From assembly GCA_035656275.1 (NCBI GenBank), contig DASRSW010000062.1, positions 986 to 64,985 on the forward strand: a stretch of 64,000 nucleotides of DNA, given 5' to 3'. Position numbers and translations under genes: made by a program. Below are positions 5,047 through 44,509 of the stretch, piece by piece. Numbering within the stretch: position 1 is the first letter of the stretch; each line of letters begins with the position of its first letter. This DNA is from Thermoplasmata archaeon (lineage in GTDB: Archaea; Thermoplasmatota; Thermoplasmata; Lutacidiplasmatales; UBA184). Under the pieces are notes generated by a model. It was not told the DNA's origin and made no database searches. It saw nothing but the letters and a program-made list of their open reading frames with translations.

Positions 5047-5150
5047 CCTGACAAGGATTCGAACCGCCCAGCGTTTCAAAAGCTCTGGATTCGAGGGTAG
5101 GCATGTTATGGGGAGTTTCGGGGATTCGAGAGTCCATCCCCGGGTGGTCG
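5047..5150 (-). repeat. Array of degenerate tRNA T-arm/3'-end-like remnants (GGTTCGAATCC-CTTGTCAGG plus two further CTCGAATCC-like copies)
   Basis: The minus-sense sequence contains CTCGAATCCCCG, CCTCGAATCCAGAG and GGTTCGAATCCTTGTCAGG within about 100 nt. The T-stem does not pair canonically and no 5' half was found. I interpret this as stacked att remnants. Confidence 0.4.
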
Positions 5151-5415: not shown

Positions 5416-7107
5416 CTACGGGAAGAGGCCGGTGTCGGGAAGCGGATCAACTTGAATGGGTATGGCTCCGCCATAGGTCACCCGTGGAGTCGGATTGTCT
5501 CTGGACCCCGAATCAGGCTTGGAAACTGTCGAGTCGTTCGCCTTAAACACCCTATGGTAACGCAGCATCGCCTCATTCGCAGACTGAGCTCTACCGAGGT
5601 CCGTATACACCTCGATTAGCGCGGGCAATAGGACGAAGCCTTCCAGCGCCATGTAGTTCGCCTGAAGAATCCTGTCAGCTTCCTCCAAGTATGGTAGGGC
5701 TTGTGTGGGCATGCCAGCCACACGGTAAAGATTGCCGAGAAGGCTAGATAGTCGAGCCCTGATCGCCGGAGGTAGTACTGTTCGATATCGTTCTAGTAGG
5801 TCTTCGATAACCAGGATGCCCTCTGCGGCGCCATCCGGCTCTTCAAGGATGCAGTTGGCGTACAGCAGTTTGCATTGGGCTTCTAGCATCGGACTCGGAT
5901 TGTTCAGGAGGTCCAACAATTGTACTGCTGTTGCGCTGTACAGGAACATCCTGGCTCGCATCTGTTGCACACGGCGAGTTACATCGAAGGGGGTTGAAGT
6001 CTCTGTGGAGCCAAGTTGCACCTGTCGGATTGTCGCGATTCTTCGTCCCACGGCAACCGCCGCAATGTAGTTTGTAATCAGCCTGTCCTCGACAGATTCT
6101 GCTGTCAAACTCATGCGGCTAAGATCAGCGGAGGGGATTTCTACCATGGACTTGCCGGAGTCGAAGGTACCCCACCAGGCCGCCTCTGTTAGGTTGAGGC
6201 GTATCACCGTCTGGCAGAACTGACGGGCGTTCGATAGGTGATACTGCAGCTTGTTGAGCTTTAGTCGGGGACTGGCTTGATGGACCGCTTTAGGACGGAC
6301 GAAGTCCTCCGTGATGGAGAGTCTTGCCAGAAGTTTGGCCAGGAGCGCTCTCGTATCGCACTTGACAGCGGTTCCGTGTAGTGATCCCTTCAAGTCGCTC
6401 CTGAGAACTGCGTTCAGGTCCTCGACCTGGAACCCCGGCCCTGCCTCCTGGTGATTGACCAATATCAGTCTGCTATCAGTCGGACCGATGTCTCTGAGAG
6501 TTGGGTTAATGTCGAAGTAGTCAGAAAAGCTGTAACCAAGTACTAGCACGAGCCCATGCCCATCTTTTGCTAGGAGCTCTTCTAGACTTGAGCGGAGCTC
6601 CGGCCTGGCCTGATTACGAACAAGCTCCTCTGACGTGGCCTTAACGGAAGCGGGGTCAGAGGCTCGCCCGTGAAGATGGTCAACGTCCAGCCTGAACTCC
6701 TCAGTGGGGTCCAATCGAAACCGGCCCGACCGGCTAAGAGAATTGGCCGCTTTCTCCACAAGTTCATCAAAGTTTGTCGTCACTACCCGTCTGGTGCAGC
6801 CCGCCGACATAATCGCGGCGATGGCGTAGTGCTCGAACGTTGGCTCCGCCGATGAAAATACATCCAGCAGTTCGCCGTAGAAAGAACCACCAAGTGATCC
6901 GATTATCACCTCAAGCGGGAGCTGTCTCACTCGAGGAGGAATCGGGTCGAGCCACAGCGCCGACAAAATTGAATTCGAGATGCTGAGAGCACCAGGGATT
7001 CCCGATGGTATCGAGACTCCCGCACCTAACCATAATGCTAGCTCGCCGCGTCTCGCGGAGCCAGCCAGAATCTCGATGATACCGTCAACAGAGTCCGGAG
7101 TCGTCAT
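5416..7107 (-). CDS. SIR2-like (SIR2_2 / DHS-like NAD-binding) domain protein fused to a C-terminal TPR-like helical-repeat domain
   Basis: N-terminal motifs LWLGAGVSIPSGIP, VVTTNFDELVEKA, VDHLHG and LVLGYSFSDYFD match the defence-type SIR2_2 signature (GAGxS / TTNYD / LHG / GYSxxD). The C-terminal ~300 aa is a helical repeat. Confidence 0.75.
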   Translation of the reverse strand: MTTPDSVDGIIEILAGSARRGELALWLGAGVSIPSGIPGALSISNSILSALWLDPIPPRVRQLPLEVIIGSLGGSFYGELLDVFSSAEPTFEHYAIAAIMSAGCTRRVVTTNFDELVEKAANSLSRSGRFRLDPTEEFRLDVDHLHGRASDPASVKATSEELVRNQARPELRSSLEELLAKDGHGLVLVLGYSFSDYFDINPTLRDIGPTDSRLILVNHQEAGPGFQVEDLNAVLRSDLKGSLHGTAVKCDTRALLAKLLARLSITEDFVRPKAVHQASPRLKLNKLQYHLSNARQFCQTVIRLNLTEAAWWGTFDSGKSMVEIPSADLSRMSLTAESVEDRLITNYIAAVAVGRRIATIRQVQLGSTETSTPFDVTRRVQQMRARMFLYSATAVQLLDLLNNPSPMLEAQCKLLYANCILEEPDGAAEGILVIEDLLERYRTVLPPAIRARLSSLLGNLYRVAGMPTQALPYLEEADRILQANYMALEGFVLLPALIEVYTDLGRAQSANEAMLRYHRVFKANDSTVSKPDSGSRDNPTPRVTYGGAIPIQVDPLPDTGLFP

Positions 7108-8523: not shown

Positions 8524-8546
8524 CCCTCACAAGGATTCGAACCTGG
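8524..8546 (-). other. tRNA 3'-end-like remnant (CCAGG-TTCGAAT-CCTTG-TGAGGGT)
   Basis: Near-canonical T-arm (one mismatch). No 5' acceptor partner found within 150 nt. Confidence 0.35.
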
Positions 8547-19040: not shown

Positions 19041-19071
19041 GGGCGGGGACGGATTCGAACCGCCCGGCGGT
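19041..19071 (-). other. tRNA 3'-end-like remnant (GGCGG-TTCGAAT-CCGTC-CCCGCCC)
   Basis: Canonical T-arm with one G-U. The anticodon arm could not be folded and no 5' acceptor GGGCGGG was found. This may be an intron-containing or split tRNA that I could not resolve by hand. Confidence 0.35.
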
Positions 19072-21680: not shown

Positions 21681-22140
21681 AGCCCACAGTCAATCCGCCT
21701 GGGCGACCTTCATCCGGGACCTCGGGGCACCGCCCCCGAAGGTCCAGATCAGCCGCGGGGAGTTGTATTCGACCTGGACGGAACGCTGGTCCCGAGTCAC
21801 CACGACTTTAGGAAGATGCAGGACGCGATCATCTCTATCGCTGTTCGTACTGGCGCCCGGGAGAGGACATTGGTCGCCACCGAAAGTGTCGGAACGAGTC
21901 AGATTCTGAGCGACGCACGGAGAGAGTTGATCCGCGCAGAAGTCTCGACGAAAGCCCTTGCACGATTTCACGAGGAGGTGGCATTCGTTGTAGACGCAAT
22001 AGAGATGACCGCGGGCAATCGGACGACGCTCCGACGCGGGGCGAAGGAACTCCTCGAGTACTTGAAAGGGCAGGGCTACCGGCTCGGGCTCTTCACCCGC
22101 GCATCGGGCCCATTCTGCGTTGAAATCCTGACAAGGATTC
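21663..22140 (+). pseudogene. Truncated HAD hydrolase gene (motifs I and II present, motifs III/IV missing). The reading frame runs into the tRNA-like remnant at 22127.
   Basis: GVVFDLDGTLV and GYRLGLFTRAS are present. No K/DD motifs follow before the att-like sequence. Confidence 0.45.
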
Positions 22141-22147
22141 GAATCCA
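22127..22147 (-). other. tRNA 3'-end-like remnant (CCTGACAAGGATTCGAATCC), shares a 17-18 nt core with 5047-5066
   Basis: Exact match of CCTGACAAGGATTCGAA to 5047-5063. The T-arm is non-canonical (palindromic GGATTCGAATCC). Confidence 0.35.
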
Positions 22148-31486: not shown

Positions 31487-32254
31487 GTGAGCCTCGCCTA
31501 CGATGTCCTCGACCGGTATCTCTACAAGGAGGACGTTCAGCAGCTCGCCCGCGATCGAGGACTTCCAACTAATCGTCCGAAGGATGAGCTGATTGCCACA
31601 CTCCTCGGGTCGGGGCGATTCGTCCCGGCAGAGGCACTCCGGTACCTGAACAAACGGGAACTTCGCCAGATCTGCCGTGAGTACCTCTTACCAGACGAAG
31701 GAGGCCGCGAAGTCCTCTTCCGGAGAGTACTGGCCGCGATCTTCGCCGGAGAGAGAACGGACCTAGCCGAGGAGGTGCCCGACGTAGACGATGAAGATAG
31801 CGATGAAGAAGAGACCGAACCGGGGAATGCAAACATGGGAGAGGAGGAGAATCACCGCGACAAAGGCGGACCTGGACCCCCGAAACGGCGTACGTCTCTC
31901 AGGTGGCCGGCTAGTGAGGCCCCGGTGCCACGGGGTGAGAATCTTGAACCAGGCGCGGCTCTCGGGTTCATACGGATGCCCCCCGCCCCCTGGCCCACCT
32001 CTAATCCCTCGGCCTCGTACGCTCTGGCACAAGACGTGTCTCGAGAACATCCGGATTCCACCGGGCCGTGGGCGGTCGCGTCGATTGTCGCAGGAGCAAT
32101 CGTGGCAGCCGGGTTCTATCTCCTCATTCCGGCACTTGGCCTCGGGGAGGGCCTTGCGGCCGCTATCACTCTGGCGATAGTCGTCGCGGCGGCTTTGATG
32201 CTAACCCGACAGCGGTGGGTTCCGTGGCTCGCGGGACTTGGTCAATCCTCGTAG
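31487..32254 (+). CDS. Hypothetical protein: N-terminal SAP-like helix-extended region, acidic linker, C-terminal TM anchor
   Basis: VQQLARDRGLPTNRPKDELIATLL resembles a SAP motif. DDEDSDEEETE acidic tract. C-terminal hydrophobic helices. Confidence 0.5.
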   Translation: MSLAYDVLDRYLYKEDVQQLARDRGLPTNRPKDELIATLLGSGRFVPAEALRYLNKRELRQICREYLLPDEGGREVLFRRVLAAIFAGERTDLAEEVPDVDDEDSDEEETEPGNANMGEEENHRDKGGPGPPKRRTSLRWPASEAPVPRGENLEPGAALGFIRMPPAPWPTSNPSASYALAQDVSREHPDSTGPWAVASIVAGAIVAAGFYLLIPALGLGEGLAAAITLAIVVAAALMLTRQRWVPWLAGLGQSS

Positions 32255-33836: not shown

Positions 33837-34983
33837 TCATGTAGCAGGAGTATGATTGCCTTTCGCAGCCGACCTCGATCGCAAATCTCGGCCACCAGAT
33901 CCTGGGCGGGTCGCCCTCGGTCAATCTCGATTTACACCAAATAGTCGGCCGCCGAAAGGCCCGTCGGAATCCACTGCGTACGTGTACCGGAAGATAGCGC
34001 ATCTAGTCCTTGAGGTCGTGTGCCCAGCTGCATTTAGAGTCGGATTCAGTTTCCTTCCAACATCCGGCTGAGAGACCAATCCATTCCCTCGGCCGGCCCC
34101 ACTCCCTCTCGAACGCCCGAATCTCGAATGGAAAATGTCTTCATCGCTTGCCCATTACCGCGTCGGAATCCATTCAGGAAGCGAAGCCGACGTGGGAGTC
34201 GTTTAGGGGTCGGAGAATCATCCCCGTTCTTGGTGAAATCCACGAGCACATGGTCCGCGCTCGCGTTGAAGCGCGTAGGAACACCGCAGCCTTCGCCGAG
34301 GCGCTTCCGGTGCTAGCAGCGTTTCTGCTCGAAACCGCGCCACCAGAGGTCGTATCGACGTGCCGAGACGAGCCCACCTGTTTCCCGCTCGGTCTTCCCC
34401 TCAATGCCGCCCACTACTAGAGCGAGGGAGGGTTGCCACTCACCAACTACTTTGGAGCGAACGGCGAGCTTCCCCCAGAGGCCGCGCGAGAGGACTACTA
34501 TCTCAGCAGTCGGAGCTTCGCGAGCCGAGTAACCATGGGTATGGTTGATCGGGGTGCGACGATGTTCGCATGCCTCTCAAAGGCGATGCACGGTCGCAGT
34601 GGAGGCCGTCTCCAGCTCTGGACTCCCGATACCGAACGGACGACAGTGTTACTTGCTCGATAGACTTCGACGAGCCGGATTGGACTCCCAGATCTTCGCT
34701 CGAGAGCCAGGTTTGGGAGCGGAAAGCTCGATCCCCCTTCGGGGCATTCCGAGTCTCGATGCAGCTCTCATCGATTCTGATCGAACCCTCCTCGGAGTAG
34801 AAGCCATTAGAGATTCTCTCCTTGGACGTTCACATTGGCCAGTGGAGTCGCGGCTGCAAGACAGCTGTGAACCGTTAGGCTAAGATTTGATTCTCGTTGC
34901 CGTGCGTCTGTTAGAGGCTAAGGCGTCACACAGTAGCTAGGACCAAGTTCTTTTACCCTGATGAACTCGGAGGCATCAGGGGA

Positions 34984-36123
34984 ATGTTGCGTCAGGGAAA
35001 GAAGGACCTCAAGAAGCTCCTAAGTCGATTTAGTCGCACTGCCCTGGTCGAGATTCTGGATCACCTCGGAATCGACGCCAAGGCACCCACGCGCGCTGCG
35101 ATACTCGACTCTCTAGTCCGAAAACAGTCGGAGACGGCGCTAAGAATTGTAAGAACATACCAGCGTCTCACTGGCGTTTCGTTGAACCTTGCGGTCGACC
35201 AGCTCTACCTACACGACCCCTCGCTTGGCCCGGTCGTCCGAGACTCGAAGAACAAGCCGGACCTCGTCCGGAGGCTCTTTCTTTCGGACAGGACGGAGGC
35301 TCTCGAGTCCATCGCCTCATTCGTTAAGTTCGCTAGGAAGAAGAACGTCTCGCCGCTCACTTTCGAAGGCAACGCAGTCCGTGAGCTCGACCAAAAAGGA
35401 GTTGAGAGGTTGATCCAACGAGCGATAGATCGAATCAACCCTGGTAGACCCCGCCCAATCCTTCTTGACCGTGTGGAAGTCGCAGCGGAGGTCGGTAGGG
35501 TCAAGGTGGCGCTTTGGCGAGAAGGAGGGAAGAGGCACGTTCGGCAGCACCCCGCACGCGTTGGACGTGGGGCAGCCGTGGAGCATGACGACTACCCGCT
35601 TCGACCCCACGTGATTGAGGTTAGCCTCAAGGAAGGAAGGATTCGCACGACGTTCCGAAGTACCGACCGTGACGGAGAGGGTGTGCTGCGGGCGGTGACA
35701 GAGTCATTCATAACGTACTCTGCACCCCCGGCACGGTCGCGGTTTCTTTCGAATCCTTTCGATGCGGATGAAGCCGAAGAGCTCAAGCGACGCATCGGAG
35801 CATTGAGAAGGAGTCTACGGGTCGACGATTCCCGAATTGCTCTTCTCGACGCTCTAACCACCGCAAAGAAGAATCTGATCGCATTCAACAGCCTCCAGAC
35901 TGAAGGTAATCTGAAGAAACTCGAGGTCCGAGCCGACGATGCCGACAAAGCGCTCAGGGCTCTCGGGGCCAGGGTCGATCTTCTCCAAACGGCCAAAAGC
36001 CACGACTACGAATTGCGATTCGATGATGGGCGCACGATCCGAGTCTCACCTTGGAGGGTCGGTTTGACCGGAATCTTCACACCCGCCGAAAGGGAATCGG
36101 TCGAGCTTATCTTTTCAGAATGA
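34984..36123 (+). CDS. Hypothetical protein (379 aa), first gene of a two-gene operon
   Basis: Its stop overlaps the start of the next gene (ATGA). Confidence 0.6.
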   Translation: MLRQGKKDLKKLLSRFSRTALVEILDHLGIDAKAPTRAAILDSLVRKQSETALRIVRTYQRLTGVSLNLAVDQLYLHDPSLGPVVRDSKNKPDLVRRLFLSDRTEALESIASFVKFARKKNVSPLTFEGNAVRELDQKGVERLIQRAIDRINPGRPRPILLDRVEVAAEVGRVKVALWREGGKRHVRQHPARVGRGAAVEHDDYPLRPHVIEVSLKEGRIRTTFRSTDRDGEGVLRAVTESFITYSAPPARSRFLSNPFDADEAEELKRRIGALRRSLRVDDSRIALLDALTTAKKNLIAFNSLQTEGNLKKLEVRADDADKALRALGARVDLLQTAKSHDYELRFDDGRTIRVSPWRVGLTGIFTPAERESVELIFSE

Positions 36124-37571
36124 GCCTTGCCAACCTCGCCCAGACCCTCGATTTGGTCCTCTCCCTTCCCAAGGGCCAAACCATTCCCGGTAGAAGCCCC
36201 CTTGCAAGGCGAACGGAGACGAAAGCCGCAGTAGCGGCCCAGGTTCTGTCTCGGACCTCACAGAGGGTCTACTGCGCCGAACACGAAACCGACTGCGAAG
36301 TCGAGCGACGGGGGGGTGCTCTGGTCGCATATCATGCGGAGGGCGGCGTTCACCAGTTCGAGGTGACTGAGGAGGACACGTTCCACTACGTCGTATCGTT
36401 CCCAGAAACGGTTCGCTTCACTTCTAAACGCCTGTTTGGGGATAGTGCAACCGTTTCAGAAGTGTCTGAAAATCATGACATGGCGTCCGCGCTTGTCGAA
36501 GTCGGAAGGGAACGCATTCGGCTCATACTCGTGCCGAAGGCATCACGGGGTACGGAGGGGGCGATCTACAGCAGGCTGGCGGAAATGACGGGCACTCGCG
36601 CCGCCGGGATCATCGCGTTTGACCTCGACATCGACAAGTGCTCGGGCCCCGTGCACCTCCTGAGCAAGGGCTACGCAGGGATTTGCCTGACTTCATTCTT
36701 CGAGGAAGCCGGCTATGCCTCGTCGTTTAGCCGAGAGTGTCTTCAACGCGCAGGCATTGAGCGCGTAAGTCTGGATCTCTTTGGCTCTGCTCACGCGAGC
36801 ATCGGTTACGATATCGAGCCGGCCGTGTGCTCCGACACCAGCCGCTTTGTAGGTAGCCTTCTGGAGAGTTGTAGGGCTCATGAGTGGAAGGCCTATGAGA
36901 GGCTCTGTAGATTCGCACTCTCTCGATTGTATGCATCGCCGCTCGAAGGATTCGGAGCCGAGGACTCCGGAAGGCTCCCCGACTCAGTAGCCATCTTACC
37001 CGACAACAATGGGCGCCCGGACCGGTTCGTCATCATCGATTCGAAGTCGCTACTCTCGGCCAGACGCGAACGGTTTCGCTTTGAAAGGACCGACCCGGCC
37101 AAATATCTCAGCTACGTTCAGAATGCAGATGCGCTTTCAAATAGAATAGATTTGCATCGGGTTACCCTTCTTTTCGTAGCCCCCGAGTACTCTCCGGAGA
37201 ATTGTGAGGCGTTTGTATCGGACTTCAGAACGGAGCGGGAGAAGGCCCGATTGCAACTCCCCACGGACGTCGTTTTCCTTACCCACACTGCACTTGCTGT
37301 ACTCTATCTGACCTTTGCCAGCCCAACTCACTCTGTGGTCCTCAAGAGCAAGGACCCTCATGGAGAATTCGAGAGACTAATGATATCACCGCGGGAACTT
37401 CAGATCAAGCATCTGGTTGATGGCGGCGCACCATGCCCTAGATTTCAAGGCGAGGGCTATGTTATTCTGCACCCGGATGACATTGGACCCATCTTCAATC
37501 ACATTCTCCAGAACCCTGACTACTTCGCGGCTCACTATGAGACTTACAGAAGACTTTCAAAGCAACTCTAG
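36120..37571 (+). CDS. Hypothetical protein (about 484 aa) with a PD-(D/E)xK-like motif (GRPDRFVIIDSK)
   Basis: Start moved to the ATG overlapping the upstream stop. P-D ... I-I-D-S-K fits the restriction-endonuclease-like core. Confidence 0.6.
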   Translation: MSLANLAQTLDLVLSLPKGQTIPGRSPLARRTETKAAVAAQVLSRTSQRVYCAEHETDCEVERRGGALVAYHAEGGVHQFEVTEEDTFHYVVSFPETVRFTSKRLFGDSATVSEVSENHDMASALVEVGRERIRLILVPKASRGTEGAIYSRLAEMTGTRAAGIIAFDLDIDKCSGPVHLLSKGYAGICLTSFFEEAGYASSFSRECLQRAGIERVSLDLFGSAHASIGYDIEPAVCSDTSRFVGSLLESCRAHEWKAYERLCRFALSRLYASPLEGFGAEDSGRLPDSVAILPDNNGRPDRFVIIDSKSLLSARRERFRFERTDPAKYLSYVQNADALSNRIDLHRVTLLFVAPEYSPENCEAFVSDFRTEREKARLQLPTDVVFLTHTALAVLYLTFASPTHSVVLKSKDPHGEFERLMISPRELQIKHLVDGGAPCPRFQGEGYVILHPDDIGPIFNHILQNPDYFAAHYETYRRLSKQL

Positions 37572-37700: not shown

Positions 37701-37728
37701 CGCAGGGATTCGAACCCTGATTCGACTC
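37701..37728 (-). other. tRNA 3'-end-like remnant (CAGGG-TTCGAAT-CCCTG with a partially duplicated GTCGAATC just upstream)
   Basis: Perfect 5-bp T-stem in minus sense. No 5' acceptor partner. Confidence 0.4.
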
Positions 37729-37880: not shown

Positions 37881-38546
37881 TCAGAGGAAACCACCAATAA
37901 GAGTTGCCACTTTCGCGACTAGAGCGAGGCAGCCCCCGACCGCAGATGAAGCCTTCACCGCTTCCCACGCAACCTTCACGATGCCCCTCGTTGGTTCAGG
38001 CTTGGCTAGCTGCGATTGAATCGTTTCGATGTCTGCGACAGCTGCCATCTTGTCAAGTTCTGGTGCATTTGACGCCGTGACCGCGTTGCGCAACTCGGCC
38101 AACGCTTGTCCCAGGTCGGCAAACTTGGAATTGACCTGATTACCGTCACCAACCGTTATCACGTTCTGTCCTGTCGCTTCTATTCTTATGCCGTGAAACT
38201 TGGCGGGCGTGAATTCGCCAGGACCTTCAATCTTGTCGATTCCAGCAGCCGTGATCTTGTAGAAACTTGTAGTTGAGGGGATAAGGGTTCCACCGGGCGC
38301 TGGGAATGACTTCTCTATCTTGTCCTCTTCCACCCATCCTTGACTGATAAGGTAGGTAAGGTTGCTCTGAACCTCCTGCTGAGTAAGATTGTTAGATGCC
38401 TTCAATTCACTCTTAACATCGCTGATCCTGACTGCCGATCCCCTCTTCCCCCGAGCGCTAGTCGCGTACTTGTTGCGTTCGTAGAAGTACTGAAGCATGA
38501 GGCGACGAATCTCGTTATTCGTTGGAGGAACACGGACGGTCTTCAT
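37881..38546 (-). CDS. Hypothetical protein (221 aa). Noticeably lower GC. Divergent from the kinase-AdSS gene.
   Basis: ORF. K/N/S-rich composition unlike the rest of the replicon. Confidence 0.55.
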   Translation of the reverse strand: MKTVRVPPTNNEIRRLMLQYFYERNKYATSARGKRGSAVRISDVKSELKASNNLTQQEVQSNLTYLISQGWVEEDKIEKSFPAPGGTLIPSTTSFYKITAAGIDKIEGPGEFTPAKFHGIRIEATGQNVITVGDGNQVNSKFADLGQALAELRNAVTASNAPELDKMAAVADIETIQSQLAKPEPTRGIVKVAWEAVKASSAVGGCLALVAKVATLIGGFL

Positions 38547-38671: not shown

Positions 38672-40303
38672 GTGGGGACAGGGTTTACCGAAACGGCACA
38701 CATGGGCGATCGAATCGTCATGCTCTCAGGTGCAATTGGTTCGGGTAAGTCCCTCCTCGGGAGGTCCCTAGCCGCTAGCGAGGGGGCCCGAGTATTCCGT
38801 ACGCGGGATGTGCTGAGACGACTCGTCCCTTCGGAGAGCGCGGATGACAGAAAGGCGCTCCAATCGGTTGGAGACCGACTGGACTTCGAGACAGAGCACC
38901 TGTGGGTCCTGCAGGAGTTCCATCAGTGGCTCGCTGGCCAAAGCGCTTCCAGAATGTCCGTTGTGGACTCGGTCCGTACCCTCGGCCAGGTAATGGCCTT
39001 TCGAGAGGAGTACGGGGCACGGGTGACCCGTGTCCACCTTTCGGCCCCTGTCGTCGAACTCGAGAGCAGGTACGCCCAACGCGCCCAGCCCAGTTCGGGC
39101 CGCGCGTACTCCTTTGCCGAGGCGCGGGCGAACGCCACCGAGCAGCAGATTGAGGCACTTGGGAACGTCGCAGACCTGGTCGTCGACACAAAGCGCTGCA
39201 CGCCGGCAGATGTCCTGATTCGTACACAGAGTCACTTCGGCGTGCGCCCCTCCGCGGGGCGTGGCTACGTTGACGTAGTGATCGGGGGACAGTATGGCAG
39301 CGAAGGGAAAGGTCAGATAGTCGATTTCATTTCGGAAGAGTACGACCTCCTAGTTCGGGTCGGCGGACCCAACGCCGGTCACTCGGTCTATCGAACACCG
39401 AGGCCCTACGTTCATCACCACCTTCCCTCAGGCACGCTCCGCGGATCGGCACGCCTTCTCATCGGACCTGGGGCCGTTCTGGGTGTTCAGACGCTCCTCA
39501 AGGAGATACGCGAGTGCGGGGTTGAGCAATCCAGGTTGACCATCGACGGAGGCGCTATGACGATCTCCGCGGACGACCTCACAGCCGAAAAGGGGCTCGT
39601 CGCGTCTATCGGGTCAACTGGTCAAGGTGTCGGGGCCGCGACTTCACGCCGAATCATGGGTCGTGGAACCGGGATCAAGCTGGCACGCGATGTGCCCGAC
39701 TTGGCCCAGTTCATCGGGAATGCGCTCGACGTGCTTCGGGAGACTTTCGCCTCTGGCGGGCGCGTCCTCCTCGAGGGTACCCAAGGGACCGGTTTGAGCC
39801 TATTTCATGGAAGCTACCCACATGTAACCTCGAGGGACACCACGGTCATGGGTTGCCTCTCCGAGGCCGGAATCCCACCGTCCCGAGTTCGGAGGATCGT
39901 AATGGTCTGCAGAACCTATCCAATTCGGGTTGAGAGCCCGGAGGCCGGCAGTTCAGGCCCCCTGCGTGAAATCTCTTACCAGGAGCTTGCCTCGCGCTCG
40001 CATATCGACGAAGCTGAGCTACTTGCAACCGAAAAGACTTCAACGACCCGGCGACAGCGACGCCTTGGGGAGTTTGAGTGGGACAATCTCCAACGAGCCG
40101 CGTTCTTGAACGCCCCGACCGACCTAGCGATAACGTTCGCCGACTACATCGACAAAGGCAATCGCGAAGCACACCGGTTCGAGCAGCTTTCTGAAGAGAC
40201 TATCAACTTCATCCAAGAGGTCGAGAGGGTTACTGGCGTCCCGGCCTCTCTGGTCGCGACTGGGTTCGGCGAGCGCAGTGTCATCGACCGACGGGCCTGG
40301 TAG
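38672..40303 (+). CDS. Fusion protein: N-terminal P-loop kinase-like domain plus C-terminal adenylosuccinate synthetase (PurA)-family domain with altered catalytic residues
   Basis: Walker A [14 protein letters not shown] in the first ~180 aa. The C-terminal ~360 aa aligns by eye to PurA: [19 protein letters not shown] vs [30 protein letters not shown] vs [23 protein letters not shown] vs [37 protein letters not shown] vs [39 protein letters not shown] vs TTGRRRRTGWLD. Asp13 becomes Ser and Lys18 becomes Gln. Confidence 0.8.
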   Translation: [543 protein letters not shown]

Positions 40304-40309
40304 GATATC

Positions 40310-40984
40310 GTGCGCGAGCCTGCCCTCTTCTCCCTATATCCGACCCTCTTCCACATGGCAGAGGACGGCAGTTGGCCAAGCATTCAGGAACGGGGTCTGC
40401 TCAGCACCACCGCCCTCCTCGACGCATACGGTGTGCAAGGGCCACAGCGAGTCGCAATAGAGTCTGCCTGGCGGCCCAAGAAGGTTGTTCTCAGACGTAG
40501 AGCGCTCCCAGACGCGGTGATTCGGGATCAGATCCCATTGCGGCCCGATCTGCTCGAACCCTGTCTCGTGGGCGGAGTTACGGTCCGGGAGTGGTACAGG
40601 TTGATCAACGGACGGGTGTTCTTTTGGCCAGATCGGAGGCGGCTGCAGTGGTTTCTCTCAGCCAAGGAGTACCGCGGCGAGCCACACATCGTCTTGACCA
40701 TGGACACTCGCTCGGTAGTCCAGCGACACCGGGAGAAGATTACGCTCTCCCAAATCAACTCGGGAAGCGCGTATCCCTCCAAAAGCACCGGGGTCGCTCC
40801 TAAGCGCGGTCCCTCGACCTTTCAACCCATCGCCGAATACCCCTTCCAGTATGCGGCTGAGCTCGTAGTAGAGGGCGGTATCCCTCAGGTCAACGGTCTG
40901 GTCCGTTCCGTTGAGCGCTGGGTTGCTCACAAGTCCGGAGACGAGGAGGCTATCTACGAACTCTTGGAAAGAATCTGGCCCTAA
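40310..40984 (+). CDS. Hypothetical protein (224 aa), starts 7 nt after the kinase-AdSS-like gene
   Basis: Tight operonic spacing. No recognised domain. Confidence 0.55.
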   Translation: MREPALFSLYPTLFHMAEDGSWPSIQERGLLSTTALLDAYGVQGPQRVAIESAWRPKKVVLRRRALPDAVIRDQIPLRPDLLEPCLVGGVTVREWYRLINGRVFFWPDRRRLQWFLSAKEYRGEPHIVLTMDTRSVVQRHREKITLSQINSGSAYPSKSTGVAPKRGPSTFQPIAEYPFQYAAELVVEGGIPQVNGLVRSVERWVAHKSGDEEAIYELLERIWP

Positions 40985-41847
40985 CTCGCAGCCTTGAACC
41001 CAAGGCCCCGTCGGCCGGCGCTGGCCAGGTCTTCATCGCGGTCGAACAGAGCAGCCCCCAAGTCGGGCTGCCCGATTCGGCAAGGGACCCCGCGACCGCA
41101 GAGCCGGTATGCCTCAACTGTCATCATGGCACCCCACATCTGCCCAATCCGCAGTCCTCTTTCCAACAAGCCCAAAGCATGCCTTGGCTGGGGAAGCAGC
41201 ACGAATACGACGTGGGACGTTCGAAAGGCAAACATCCATTCGGCGGCGCCCAGCGCCCCCAAGCGAGCCGCGAGGCGCGTTACAAAAGCGTCGCGGGGCG
41301 TGCGCGGGAAGTGCTGATACAAGAGTACCGAGTGGTCCTGGTCCAGAGCACGGCTAACTTCCACTTCGAATAGGTACTTCGACGATCGCGGCTTCCCCCG
41401 GCCCACTGACTTGACGGCGAGCCCATTGTCAGGATCAAAGAAGACGAGGTCGGATCCGTCGGAGAGCTCGAAGAAGCGGTCGAAGTACTCGTTCCGGCCA
41501 TCGGAGTCATCAACGAGATGGTCGTCGAAAAACTGGCAGTTCGACAAGATTCCCGCCTCGTGGATGGCACGCACCTCGCGTACGCCTCGGTCGATCACCT
41601 GGTGTCTGAGGAATCCGTAGACTACCGGGTCGTAGCCGCCCCAGGCATTGGGGTCAAATAGGTACGACGTGCGACTTCCATCACGACCTGTGTCGTCCGG
41701 AGTCAACGCCCAACACACGGTCGCGGCAAGTCGACCCCGCCCGGTCAGAGCCCGTATGAGGCTGTACTTCCGGTAGTCATTGAGGTCCCCGAAGTACTGG
41801 TTCTTCATCTCAAAGAACACCCCCCTTGGCATTTCGAACCAATGCAC
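40981..41847 (-). CDS. Hypothetical protein (288 aa), convergent with 40310-40984
   Basis: ORF with protein-like composition. Contains FFDPDNG...YLFEVEVS segment. Confidence 0.5.
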   Translation of the reverse strand: MHWFEMPRGVFFEMKNQYFGDLNDYRKYSLIRALTGRGRLAATVCWALTPDDTGRDGSRTSYLFDPNAWGGYDPVVYGFLRHQVIDRGVREVRAIHEAGILSNCQFFDDHLVDDSDGRNEYFDRFFELSDGSDLVFFDPDNGLAVKSVGRGKPRSSKYLFEVEVSRALDQDHSVLLYQHFPRTPRDAFVTRLAARLGALGAAEWMFAFRTSHVVFVLLPQPRHALGLLERGLRIGQMWGAMMTVEAYRLCGRGVPCRIGQPDLGAALFDRDEDLASAGRRGLGFKAAS

Positions 41848-42908: not shown

Positions 42909-44393
42909 TCAGTGCAGTCGGCCGTCGTTGTCCGTCCGAGGGATCGGAGTGGGCCTTAGGATTGCACGGTTGGGTCCCAGTTGGGCCACGAACTCATAAC
43001 CCGACCCGATGAAGCGCTCCGCCTCGGCGAGGGAGACCACTCGCTGAGTCGAGGGAGGGCTGGGGGTGGCAGCCGGGGTCTGGAAAGGTAGTTCCTCGTT
43101 CGTGGCGGTGGTGCGTTGACCAGACCGCTTCCCGGGCTCTCCTCGGCTCTTCTCCTGCTCCGCCAGCATCTTCGCGAGGAACTCGATCGCCTCGGGCTCG
43201 CGGAGTAGCGCCGCCAAGCGCTCCTCCGCGCTCCGAGCTTCCTCGATTTGCTTCACGGCTGGAAGGGAGAGGGGGCCTCCGCAGGTCATGCAATACACTG
43301 CGCCGGGCGGGTTGACCGTCTTACAACGACCGCATCTGGACGGAGCCCGGCTAGGCTCCGGATTCTCCCTCGGGTCTGGCACTTTCACCCCGTAGCGTGC
43401 ATTCAGTGCACCGATCACATCCTTCCCACTCAAGTGGACGTAGTGCCGGGCGACGTCGCTCCCGGGAACCCACCCTGCTACCTTCTCGAGAATGGAGGTC
43501 GAGATTGCTGGGTCCTTAGCGAGTATAGTCAGCCGGGATCGGCGCAGCGCGTAGGCCGTCACCGGCTTCTTTATGCCCGCCCGCAGTGCGGCGGTCTCGA
43601 GCGCCTTGTACATCGCGCGATACGTGGCCGGCCTTCCCGACCGTTCCCCGCCCAAGTCGACCCAGAGAGGGGAGGAGGTGTCTTCCCGAGCCGGATGAGC
43701 GTTCAGCCAGGCCAGCAGCGCCGGGACCGCATCCTCGTAAACCGGGGCCGGCTCCGGGGCGGACCCTTTCTCCCGACTGACTCTGAGCTCGATGTATCCC
43801 TCGTCGTGAGGAACTACATCGCAAATCCGAAGTCGGTAGATCTCGCCAGGTCGGCAGCCGGAATTGAATAGTGTCCAGATCCAGGCCTTGTCACGGAAGT
43901 TCAGCGCCGCGTCAGCGATCCGAGCGACGTCCTCACGGGAGAGCATGTCCGATGGACCAGCCACGGGTTTCCATTTCTCCAGGCGGATTCGGAGCCAAGA
44001 AGGGTACTCCCTTCCCTGGCGGGCGAACCACCATCGCCAGAACGTTCCCAAGCAGTTCGTACCGGTCGCCCGTGTAGCTCGGGCGTAGACGCCCGGAGGA
44101 AAGGCCGCTGTGAATGCAGCCGGGGTCTCCTTGTCGGGGGAGAGGAAACGTGAGCCCAGCCGGGACGCTGCCAAAGGCAGCCAGGTTAGGAATGTCCGGA
44201 TCCGGACCTCGCTGACCTCGGGCCGGCGGGCCGAGACAAAAGCGAGAATCGCGTCCCGTTCAGATCGCTCGAGGTCGAGGACCGTGCCGACGGGTCCCCC
44301 CCCACCCAACTGAGCGAGACGTTTCTCGACGTAGCCAGACACGAGGTGGACGTCCCCGAACGGATCTTCGCGAAGTCGCTTCCGGCCCGCCAT
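42909..44393 (-). CDS. Tyrosine recombinase/integrase with C-terminal zinc-ribbon (CGRC...CMTCGG) extension
   Basis: Catalytic-domain residues ALRRSRLTILAK, ARHYVHLSG. Located 43 nt from the tRNA-Thr 3' end. Confidence 0.85.
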   Translation of the reverse strand: MAGRKRLREDPFGDVHLVSGYVEKRLAQLGGGGPVGTVLDLERSERDAILAFVSARRPEVSEVRIRTFLTWLPLAASRLGSRFLSPDKETPAAFTAAFPPGVYARATRATGTNCLGTFWRWWFARQGREYPSWLRIRLEKWKPVAGPSDMLSREDVARIADAALNFRDKAWIWTLFNSGCRPGEIYRLRICDVVPHDEGYIELRVSREKGSAPEPAPVYEDAVPALLAWLNAHPAREDTSSPLWVDLGGERSGRPATYRAMYKALETAALRAGIKKPVTAYALRRSRLTILAKDPAISTSILEKVAGWVPGSDVARHYVHLSGKDVIGALNARYGVKVPDPRENPEPSRAPSRCGRCKTVNPPGAVYCMTCGGPLSLPAVKQIEEARSAEERLAALLREPEAIEFLAKMLAEQEKSRGEPGKRSGQRTTATNEELPFQTPAATPSPPSTQRVVSLAEAERFIGSGYEFVAQLGPNRAILRPTPIPRTDNDGRLH

Positions 44394-44436: not shown

Positions 44437-44509
44437 AGCCGCGGGAGGGGTTTGAACCCTCGACCTGCTCCTTACCAAGGAGCCGCTCTGCCAGCTGAGC
44501 CACCGCGGC
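44437..44509 (-). tRNA. tRNA-Thr (anticodon GGU)
   Basis: Hand-folded cloverleaf. Acceptor GCCGCGG/CCGCGGC. D-stem GCTC/GAGC. Anticodon stem GCTCC/GGAGC with loop TTGGTAA. T-stem GAGGG/CCCTC with loop TTCAAAC. 73 nt, no encoded CCA. Confidence 0.85.

Follow-up and report, generated by a model that had tools for sequence, protein, structure and literature searches.

What does a pair of overlapping genes, both annotated as hypothetical proteins, do on integrated DNA in a Thermoplasmata archaeon? The genes, here ORF1 (34984..36123, plus strand, VFG07_07355) and ORF2 (36120..37571, plus strand, VFG07_07360), lie on contig DASRSW010000062.1 of assembly GCA_035656275.1, in a stretch of 64,000 nucleotides (nt; positions 986 to 64,985 of the contig) that is called the window below and whose numbering is used throughout. 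We find that ORF2 is very probably a PD-(D/E)xK nuclease and that ORF1, its predicted DNA-binding partner, has a modelled fold resembling that of RdgC. The two are kept together on mobile DNA of archaea, where a role in defence is the reading towards which we lean.

A coupled gene pair with a predicted FokI-type nuclease

ORF1 encodes 379 residues with an isoelectric point (pI) of 10.1, and ORF2, the predicted nuclease subunit, 483 residues with a pI of 6.0. The two frames meet in an ATGA (36120..36123, plus strand) in which the TGA stop of ORF1 (36121..36123) is shared with the ATG of ORF2 (36120..36122); the surrounding stretch 36110..36129 reads tcttttcagaATGAgccttg. A putative Shine-Dalgarno-like GGAGG, read from the sequence (34969..34973, plus strand), stands 10 nt 5' of the ORF1 ATG. 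The ORF2 frame opens at TTG 36051; ATG 36120 is the favoured start, and the N-termini of homologues align with it. An ORF1 homologue of 379 residues and 55% identity is found on a metagenomic contig (L001), where the gene 3' of it, with a 4-nt overlap, encodes a product that matches the ORF2 N-terminus at 41% identity over its first 167 residues. Comparison of ORF1 with this homologue gives proportions of non-synonymous and synonymous differences of 0.30 (pN) and 0.72 (pS) and a ratio of the corresponding rates (dN/dS) of ~0.15; between ORF2 and the L001 fragment the synonymous sites are saturated. Because of the ATGA overlap, the dN/dS of 0.15 and the ORF2-like gene downstream on L001, both are judged from their sequences to be real genes, with purifying selection on both. 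The initial annotation had described a translationally coupled operon of 379 and about 484 residues. Its coordinates and the ATGA overlap hold, the second length is corrected to 483, and the pair recurs at 15/15 loci (below), with the 4-nt overlap frequent.

A nuclease function for ORF2 had originally been suggested by a PD-(D/E)xK-like motif, GRPDRFVIIDSK, at residues 298-309 (37011..37046). Such a motif alone is weak evidence, because PD-x(4-25)-(D/E)-x-K arises in 9.5% of composition-preserving shuffles of ORF2, and since shuffles yield the motif so often the nuclease call rests on family conservation instead. In an alignment of 19 ORF2-family sequences, 16 of which cover the nuclease region (15-37% identity), E260 (F-E-x-L on a helix), G284, D288, D307 and K309 (D-[SA]-K-S) are invariant in 16/16 members; conservation is strong, too, in the motifs K-Y-x-x-Y, L-L-F-[IV]-A-P and F-L-x-L-x-A-L. 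This conservation divides the motif proposed at the outset. The DSK half stands (D307 and K309), whereas the supposed PD half, P300-D301 of ‘RPDRF’, does not, D301 being conserved in just 3/16 members; the true PD is P287-D288, 19 residues ahead of D307.

The conserved residues are arranged as in restriction endonucleases in an alignment-based AlphaFold2 (AF2) model of ORF2 [mean predicted local distance difference test (pLDDT) 88.8, predicted template modelling score (pTM) 0.77]. The invariant acid E260 (36897..36899, plus strand) sits on helix 256-270 ahead of the core strands, D288 of G-x-R-[LVI]-P-D (36981..36983, plus strand; P287 is kept in 15/16) just before strand 289-294, and the (D/E)xK triad D307-S-K309 (37038..37046, plus strand) at the end of strand 300-308, which D307 terminates. 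Two hallmarks of the PD-(D/E)xK superfamily, the invariant E/D/D/K residues, intact in ORF2, and a restriction-endonuclease-like alpha/beta core in the model, are thus present. The cleavage domain, supported by profile and fold matches, is placed at residues ~239-412 (36834..37355, plus strand).

The hidden Markov model (HMM) of the ORF2 family finds N.BspD6I in the PDB with an expectation value (E) of 2.5e-5, or 3e-5 when the profile is restricted to the nuclease domain, and no other PDB sequence is significant. The matched stretch of N.BspD6I, residues 474-573 or 474-555, includes the LFIAPE segment. A Foldseek search of the PDB with the whole ORF2 model likewise places N.BspD6I on top (6qnz_B, E 1.2e-3, probability 1.0), with a low template modelling (TM) score that we attribute to the multi-domain query. 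A restriction-endonuclease-like fold, which the initial annotation had expected in the second protein, is accordingly found in the model at residues ~240-410. This protein, the nickase Nt.BspD6I, forms the large subunit of a type IIS heterodimer, R.BspD6I; its active centre is C-terminal, and substitution E418A or D456A leaves it catalytically deficient (PMC6261011). In Pfam, FokI_cleav_dom gives a sub-threshold match in 1/16 members (best E 0.039), and no ORF2-family member exceeds the gathering score of FokI_cleav_dom or RE_AlwI. Because the AF2 model and the family profile both point to N.BspD6I alone, we place ORF2 among the FokI-like cleavage domains, and conservation and model together make it very probable that it is a PD-(D/E)xK nuclease of FokI/BspD6I type, with predicted activity.

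The N-terminal ~235 residues of ORF2 comprise a Cys/His cluster in a beta-rich segment, then an alpha/beta domain and a long helix. The Cys/His region is zinc-ribbon-like (residues ~43-92, 36246..36395, plus strand), with C52, H55, C59 and H72 as putative metal ligands; C52 is kept in 14/14 members and the other Cys/His positions are partly kept. A profile of this N-terminal part has no significant match in the PDB and none in Pfam. Single-sequence searches of the PDB returned the MALT1 death domain and GGDEF proteins, which were dismissed as noise. Foldseek matches of ORF2 to acyl-CoA carboxyltransferases and Cap4 were also rejected [probability mostly <=0.6, root-mean-square deviation (rmsd) ~20 Å].

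ORF1, a basic protein whose modelled fold resembles that of RdgC

The AF2 model of ORF1 (pLDDT 84.1, pTM 0.59) has a helical N-terminus of ~118 residues and an alpha/beta remainder. Model secondary structure and family conservation define the all-helical N-terminal domain (residues 1-118, 34984..35337, plus strand); residues 119-379 (35338..36120, plus strand) are alpha/beta with a predicted fold like that of RdgC and CENP-N, the underlying matches being whole-chain and the residue range our own assignment. Foldseek against the PDB ranks Escherichia coli RdgC first (2owl, E 8e-5), followed by Pseudomonas aeruginosa RdgC (2owy, 5.6e-4) and CENP-N (7.6e-4). Among viral models (BFVD) the matches are annotated as ‘Recombination-associated protein’, ‘Exonuclease’ and ‘RdgC’; the phage annotation ‘Exonuclease’ we take to denote RdgC-type proteins. 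A single fold, used to bind DNA irrespective of sequence, is reported for RdgC, for lambda RexA and for two kinetochore proteins, IML3 and CHL4, and dimers of RdgC are rings whose pore is basic (PMC11077077). IML3 and CHL4 are the counterparts of CENP-L and CENP-N, CENP-N being the vertebrate equivalent of CHL4. No match to Pfam RdgC was obtained for any of 11 ORF1-family members, and PDB profile searches were blank too. Because a sequence-level relation to RdgC or RexA is missing, we grade ORF1 as having an RdgC-like predicted fold rather than as belonging to the family: in its model it resembles RdgC, at the level of the fold only, and by sequence it is no member of the RdgC family.

The family shares features that suit DNA binding. 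Of 10 members, 6 have a pI >=9; ORF2 is mildly acidic. A conserved basic beta-hairpin, WREGGKRHVRQHPAR (residues 178-192, 35515..35559, plus strand), is kept across the ORF1 family as WREGGKRHVRQ.P.R, with Q188 and R192 invariant; it is built on strands 172-180 and 184-188 and may be a DNA-contacting finger. Residues ~18-47 form a SAP/HeH-like helix-loop-helix at the level of pattern only, without a significant match to Pfam SAP.

SAP-motif proteins with a hydrophobic C-terminal segment are also encoded upstream of the pair in the window (31487-32254, plus strand) and at locus L019 (6724-7770, plus strand). The two have the SAP motif alone in common (pairwise E 6e-6 over 38 residues), and the ORF1 N-terminus is SAP-like as well.

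Occurrence of the pair and its possible role

Word-indexed homology searches were nearly blank: ORF2 returned itself only, ORF1 one homologue, and a rerun with the ORF2-family profile two proteins. An exhaustive HMMER search against 1.84 billion cluster representatives, with both proteins concatenated as the query, recovered both families, with 29 proteins at E <= 1e-3 (~10 of the ORF1 and ~19 of the ORF2 family). A scan of a genome collection for ORF1 relatives found none, and neither 50,697 phage records (tblastn) nor IMG/VR viral contigs gave a match. The gene-pair family is very rare. ORF1, ORF2 and their family members match nothing in Pfam, NCBIfam, PHROGs or PADLOC, in agreement with the initial annotation, which had seen no other recognizable motifs in either protein.

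Genomic context is available for 15 distinct loci (the window, L001, L003, L004, L007-L011, L012, L013, L016-L018 and L019), among them a plasmid of Halorussus salilacus (L012, NZ_CP099995.1) and a plasmid of Haladaptatus sp. QDMS2 (L013, NZ_CP119793.1), whose copies (NGM10_RS17215/17220 and P1M51_RS19855/19850, respectively) are annotated as hypothetical. At 15/15 loci the ORF1-family gene stands directly 5' of the ORF2-family gene on the same strand, overlapping it by 4 to 23 nt or abutting it; the 4-nt overlap is identical at L001, L003, L009, L012, L013, L018 and L019. The named hosts are archaeal in 4/4 cases (Thermoplasmata, two Halobacteria and Candidatus Bilamarchaeum), and the GC content of the loci ranges from 33% to 56%. 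The pair is kept as a unit in Thermoplasmata, Halobacteria and Micrarchaeota, even where identity falls to 15-25%.

Integrase genes occur in the fetched flanks, within ~6.5 kb of the pair, at six loci (window, L004, L010, L016, L017 and L019); in the window and at L016, where the neighbour is tRNA-Leu, they form tRNA-adjacent islands. Restriction-modification (R-M) genes are present at seven loci: a C5 methylase at L004, type I hsdRMS at L007 and L017, type III at L008, hsdM at L011, an HsdR-like fragment at L018 and a type IIG fusion at L019. Other neighbours include AAA_15/21 ATPases, SLFN_AlbA_2 and MazE, and on the Halorussus plasmid the pair is near genes for an SMC-ATPase/metallophosphoesterase, an ArdC-like protein and Orc1/Cdc6. 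All-against-all comparison of the flanking ORFs of the 15 loci yields no third gene conserved with the pair. No methyltransferase is conserved beside it either, the R-M genes varying in type (I, III, IIG, C5) and position. The homologues are not syntenic housekeeping genes, an outcome that would have spoken against a defence cassette; they lie on plasmids, on integrase islands and beside R-M systems.

On balance we lean towards defence by recruitment: the pair would be a coupled nuclease module on mobile DNA that serves archaea in defence against viruses or plasmids (exclusion). In the mechanism that we infer, ORF1 would bind DNA as a dimer without sequence specificity, would thread onto or clamp free ends or replication or recombination intermediates of invading DNA, and would recruit or license the mildly acidic ORF2, whose FokI-type domains would have to pair to cut both strands. 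Since no methyltransferase is conserved, protection of self DNA would come from gated activation, or from a requirement for a DNA structure or modification, rather than from a methylated recognition site. One speculation starts from the circularity of archaeal chromosomes: a ring that loads on free ends, or on intermediates of replication or recombination that are unusual, would mark the invader. A more specific version is possible but decidedly tentative: a ring or horseshoe of ORF1, of RdgC/RexA-type fold, would sense the structure of invading DNA (free double-strand ends, replication or recombination intermediates) and license dimerization of the FokI-type nuclease. This would be an undescribed kind of archaeal immunity, with a sensor like that of Rex coupled to an effector of restriction type and self told from non-self without methylation or guide RNAs.

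Several results weigh against this reading. The context evidence for a defence role is good but circumstantial, and a defence-island setting is also typical of other mobile-element cargo; with E values up to 1 allowed, neither protein matches any component model of PADLOC-DB v2. For ORF2, the HMM alignment to N.BspD6I begins just after the DxK motif and covers only the part of the domain beyond it, and the equivalence of catalytic residues, which lie outside the aligned stretch, is extrapolated. The fold matches of ORF1 have a probability of 1.0, yet TM scores of 0.24-0.35 and an rmsd of ~9-11 Å; hhalign gives the ORF1 family a probability of 0.6% against E. coli RdgC and 0.2% against lambda RexA, and the 50 best PDB fold matches of ORF1 do not include RexA. 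At L016 (11104-12588) the ORF2 homologue is split over three reading frames by two frameshifts downstream of an intact ORF1 homologue, and could be a decaying copy or reflect long-read assembly errors. The nuclease-based defence pair of the initial annotation is supported in its nuclease domain and its mobile, R-M-associated context; for its defence role the evidence is circumstantial, and PADLOC gives no match.

The kinship of ORF2 suggests a different explanation, in which ORF2 is a methyltransferase-less type IV or type IIS-like enzyme whose N-terminus reads a modified base or a site and whose FokI-type domain cuts nearby, ORF1 being an accessory clamp or processivity factor and not a sensor. 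The sole significant known relative, N.BspD6I, is a type IIS enzyme and likewise works as a two-subunit complex (PMC6261011), the zinc-ribbon-like region of ORF2 could read DNA, and the lack of a conserved methyltransferase in the 15 loci is as expected of modification-dependent enzymes. We nevertheless think this unlikely: the N-terminal 235 residues of ORF2 have no detectable similarity to a known recognition or modification-reading domain, the basic partner is ORF1 while ORF2 is acidic, strict pairing with a 380-residue partner is foreign to known type IV enzymes, and ORF1 is no second nuclease subunit of the kind found in R.BspD6I. The absence of a self-protecting methyltransferase would also suit a toxin-antitoxin (TA)-like or abortive pair, in which stoichiometric binding of ORF1 holds ORF2, a non-specific DNase toxin, inactive, and loss or titration of ORF1 (e.g. 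by foreign DNA) leads to degradation of all the cell's DNA and thereby to cell death or stabilization of the element. Regulator-first, effector-second order with overlapping genes would provide a fixed stoichiometry, the pair resides on plasmids and integrative islands, and lambda Rex is a precedent for an RdgC-related fold that triggers an abortive response (PMC11077077). A protein of ~380 residues with a DNA-binding-type fold is, however, unlike typical antitoxins, and no TA or abortive infection (Abi) model matches in PADLOC or Pfam; we judge the TA-like arrangement improbable, although the present results do not separate it from the recruitment model.

Least probable, and in our view very unlikely, is a function for the mobile element itself, as a recombination, replication or DNA-processing module for upkeep of the plasmid or island or for competition between elements, with ORF1 modulating recombination in the manner of RdgC and ORF2 processing the intermediates. 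The neighbours of the pair vary between loci, so that it is not part of a fixed replication or recombination module, the R-M genes beside it at seven loci fit defence islands better, and the phage records and IMG/VR are devoid of matches. These points stand against the association of RdgC with recombination, the encoding of RdgC-type proteins by phages (PMC11077077), the integrases near six loci and the SMC-ATPase/metallophosphoesterase, ArdC-like and Orc1/Cdc6 genes on the Halorussus plasmid.

Within the proposed defence module, a significant known relative exists for the C-terminal half of ORF2 alone. With Nt.BspD6I/R.BspD6I, ORF2 shares the significant profile match including LFIAPE, the acid on a helix, the PD and the (D/E)xK, and the pair shares the second polypeptide encoded next door; the ORF2 N-terminus is, however, without sequence relation to the BspD6I recognition domains, and the partner is a small second nuclease subunit there and a protein of RdgC-like fold here. 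Type IIS R-M systems differ in that no cognate methyltransferase is conserved with the pair, whose named hosts are all archaeal. Proteobacterial RdgC gives the best PDB fold matches to ORF1, which is basic and carries a basic hairpin, consistent with non-specific DNA binding. In contrast to RdgC, ORF1 has an extra helical N-terminus of ~118 residues; sequence or profile similarity between them is absent and the TM score is low (~0.3). RdgC is encoded by a solitary housekeeping gene, whereas the gene for ORF1 resides on mobile elements and has that of a nuclease as its obligate partner. Lambda RexA/RexB is likewise a two-gene exclusion module on a mobile element, and the fold matches of ORF1 (RdgC, CENP-N) fall in the fold group of RexA. 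RexB is a membrane protein, whereas ORF2 is a soluble PD-(D/E)xK nuclease, predicted to be globular alpha/beta, and ORF1 has no detectable sequence relation to RexA and no PADLOC match. ‘RdgC histone’ operons of Halobacteria and Bacillus encode a histone, an RdgC-like protein and a transmembrane protein of unknown joint function (PMC11390915). They resemble the pair in that a divergent RdgC-like protein, extended at its termini by additional domains, is encoded in a conserved operon of several genes, haloarchaea included, and differ in that the partners are histone-fold and transmembrane proteins instead of a nuclease. Full-text literature on RdgC with defence or nucleases, together with a survey of archaeal defence (PMC12988326), describes no such pair. 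Each part is of a familiar type, the effector being a PD-(D/E)xK protein and its partner a DNA binder, both encoded on a defence island; their combination has not previously been reported.

If the pair does act in defence, it would be the second use of an RdgC/RexA-type fold as an immune sensor, after lambda Rex, and would illustrate how a restriction-type nuclease can be kept in check when no methyltransferase is present. FokI-type domains whose activation depends on a distinct DNA-binding protein would also be of interest for engineering. Because Halorussus salilacus YCN54 and Haladaptatus sp. QDMS2, which carry the system on plasmids, are cultured haloarchaea, it is open to direct testing.

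In a low-GC subfamily, one locus of which is from a Candidatus Bilamarchaeum metagenome-assembled genome, the pair lies directly beside type I hsdR/M/S genes (L007 12439-18724, L017 11139-16802, L011 140-1651). The arrangement is reminiscent of PrrC and other backup nucleases that lie within type I loci, and may be mere synteny between related genomes.

The island around the pair and its other genes

The low-GC part of the window extends from 1 to ~44400 (GC 0.55-0.67; the remainder is at about 0.65-0.74) and ends at tRNA-Thr(GGT) (44437..44509, minus strand), which marks the junction with high-GC DNA; a tyrosine integrase is encoded beside the tRNA (42909..44393, minus strand). The operon, with a GC of 0.56 like its low-GC surroundings, lies ~6 kb inside this large integrated island (~44 kb). 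A search of the window for a repeat of the tRNA-Thr 3' end, which could mark the island's opposite boundary, found none.

The initial annotation had the operon end, as a discrete acquired cassette, at a tRNA-like remnant. This does not hold up: the supposed remnant is a 17-nt T-arm-like hairpin, CAGGGTTCGAATCCCTG (CAGGG-TTCGAAT-CCCTG, 37703..37719, minus strand), in the 309-bp gap between convergent genes, and the GC content of the operon matches that of the whole island. ARAGORN, and Rfam at gathering score, make no call at 37703..37719; a lenient Rfam scan matches the hairpin alone. There is no cloverleaf around it, and the surrounding 131 nt fold no better than shuffles (z-score -0.72). The hairpin differs from the resident tRNA-Thr, and an exact-match search for the T-arm 23-mer in 185,579 species genomes was negative. 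Motifs of the type GGTTCGAATCC are enriched in the window, with 7 matches (two being one site on both strands) against 2.15 expected, a number reached by 0/100 shuffles. The minus strand of the island has five such sites, in the same orientation as tRNA-Thr (5055-5065, 8533-8543, 19051-19061, 22135-22145 and 37706-37716), and three sites share TTCGAATCCTTGTSAGG. The T-loop-like sites may be decayed att sites or tRNA fragments from successive integrations; none of them can be said to bound the operon.

Upstream of ORF1, 1.15 kb (33837-34983) separate it from a divergent gene of 481 residues, a relative of phrog_27609. This gap contains no ORF longer than 136 residues, and six ORFs tried in it gave no Pfam match; a decayed gene is one possibility, a long stretch of regulatory or non-coding DNA another.

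Convergent on ORF2 is a gene for a 221-residue protein (37881-38546, minus strand) with a hydrophobic C-terminal tail, an apparent N-terminal winged helix by eye and weak matches to PADLOC PDC-M14B (E 1e-5). A homologue (25.6% identity, E 1e-14), likewise convergent, directly follows the pair at L018 (6772-7440, minus strand) and is absent at the other 13 loci. Elsewhere on the island, a 563-residue SIR2_2 protein (5416-7107, minus strand) matches the PADLOC SIR2, pAgo-associated and ThsA models (best E 3.7e-11) and is further defence-type cargo. Beyond the convergent gene, a 543-residue protein (38672-40303, plus strand) that joins a P-loop kinase domain (AAA_33) to one resembling adenylosuccinate synthetase (Pfam E 2.8e-53) is directly followed by a DUF7002 protein (40310-40984, plus strand) and a convergent gene for a 288-residue protein without a family match (40981-41847, minus strand). 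The nucleotide-metabolism-type pair at 38672-40984 could be another conflict system.

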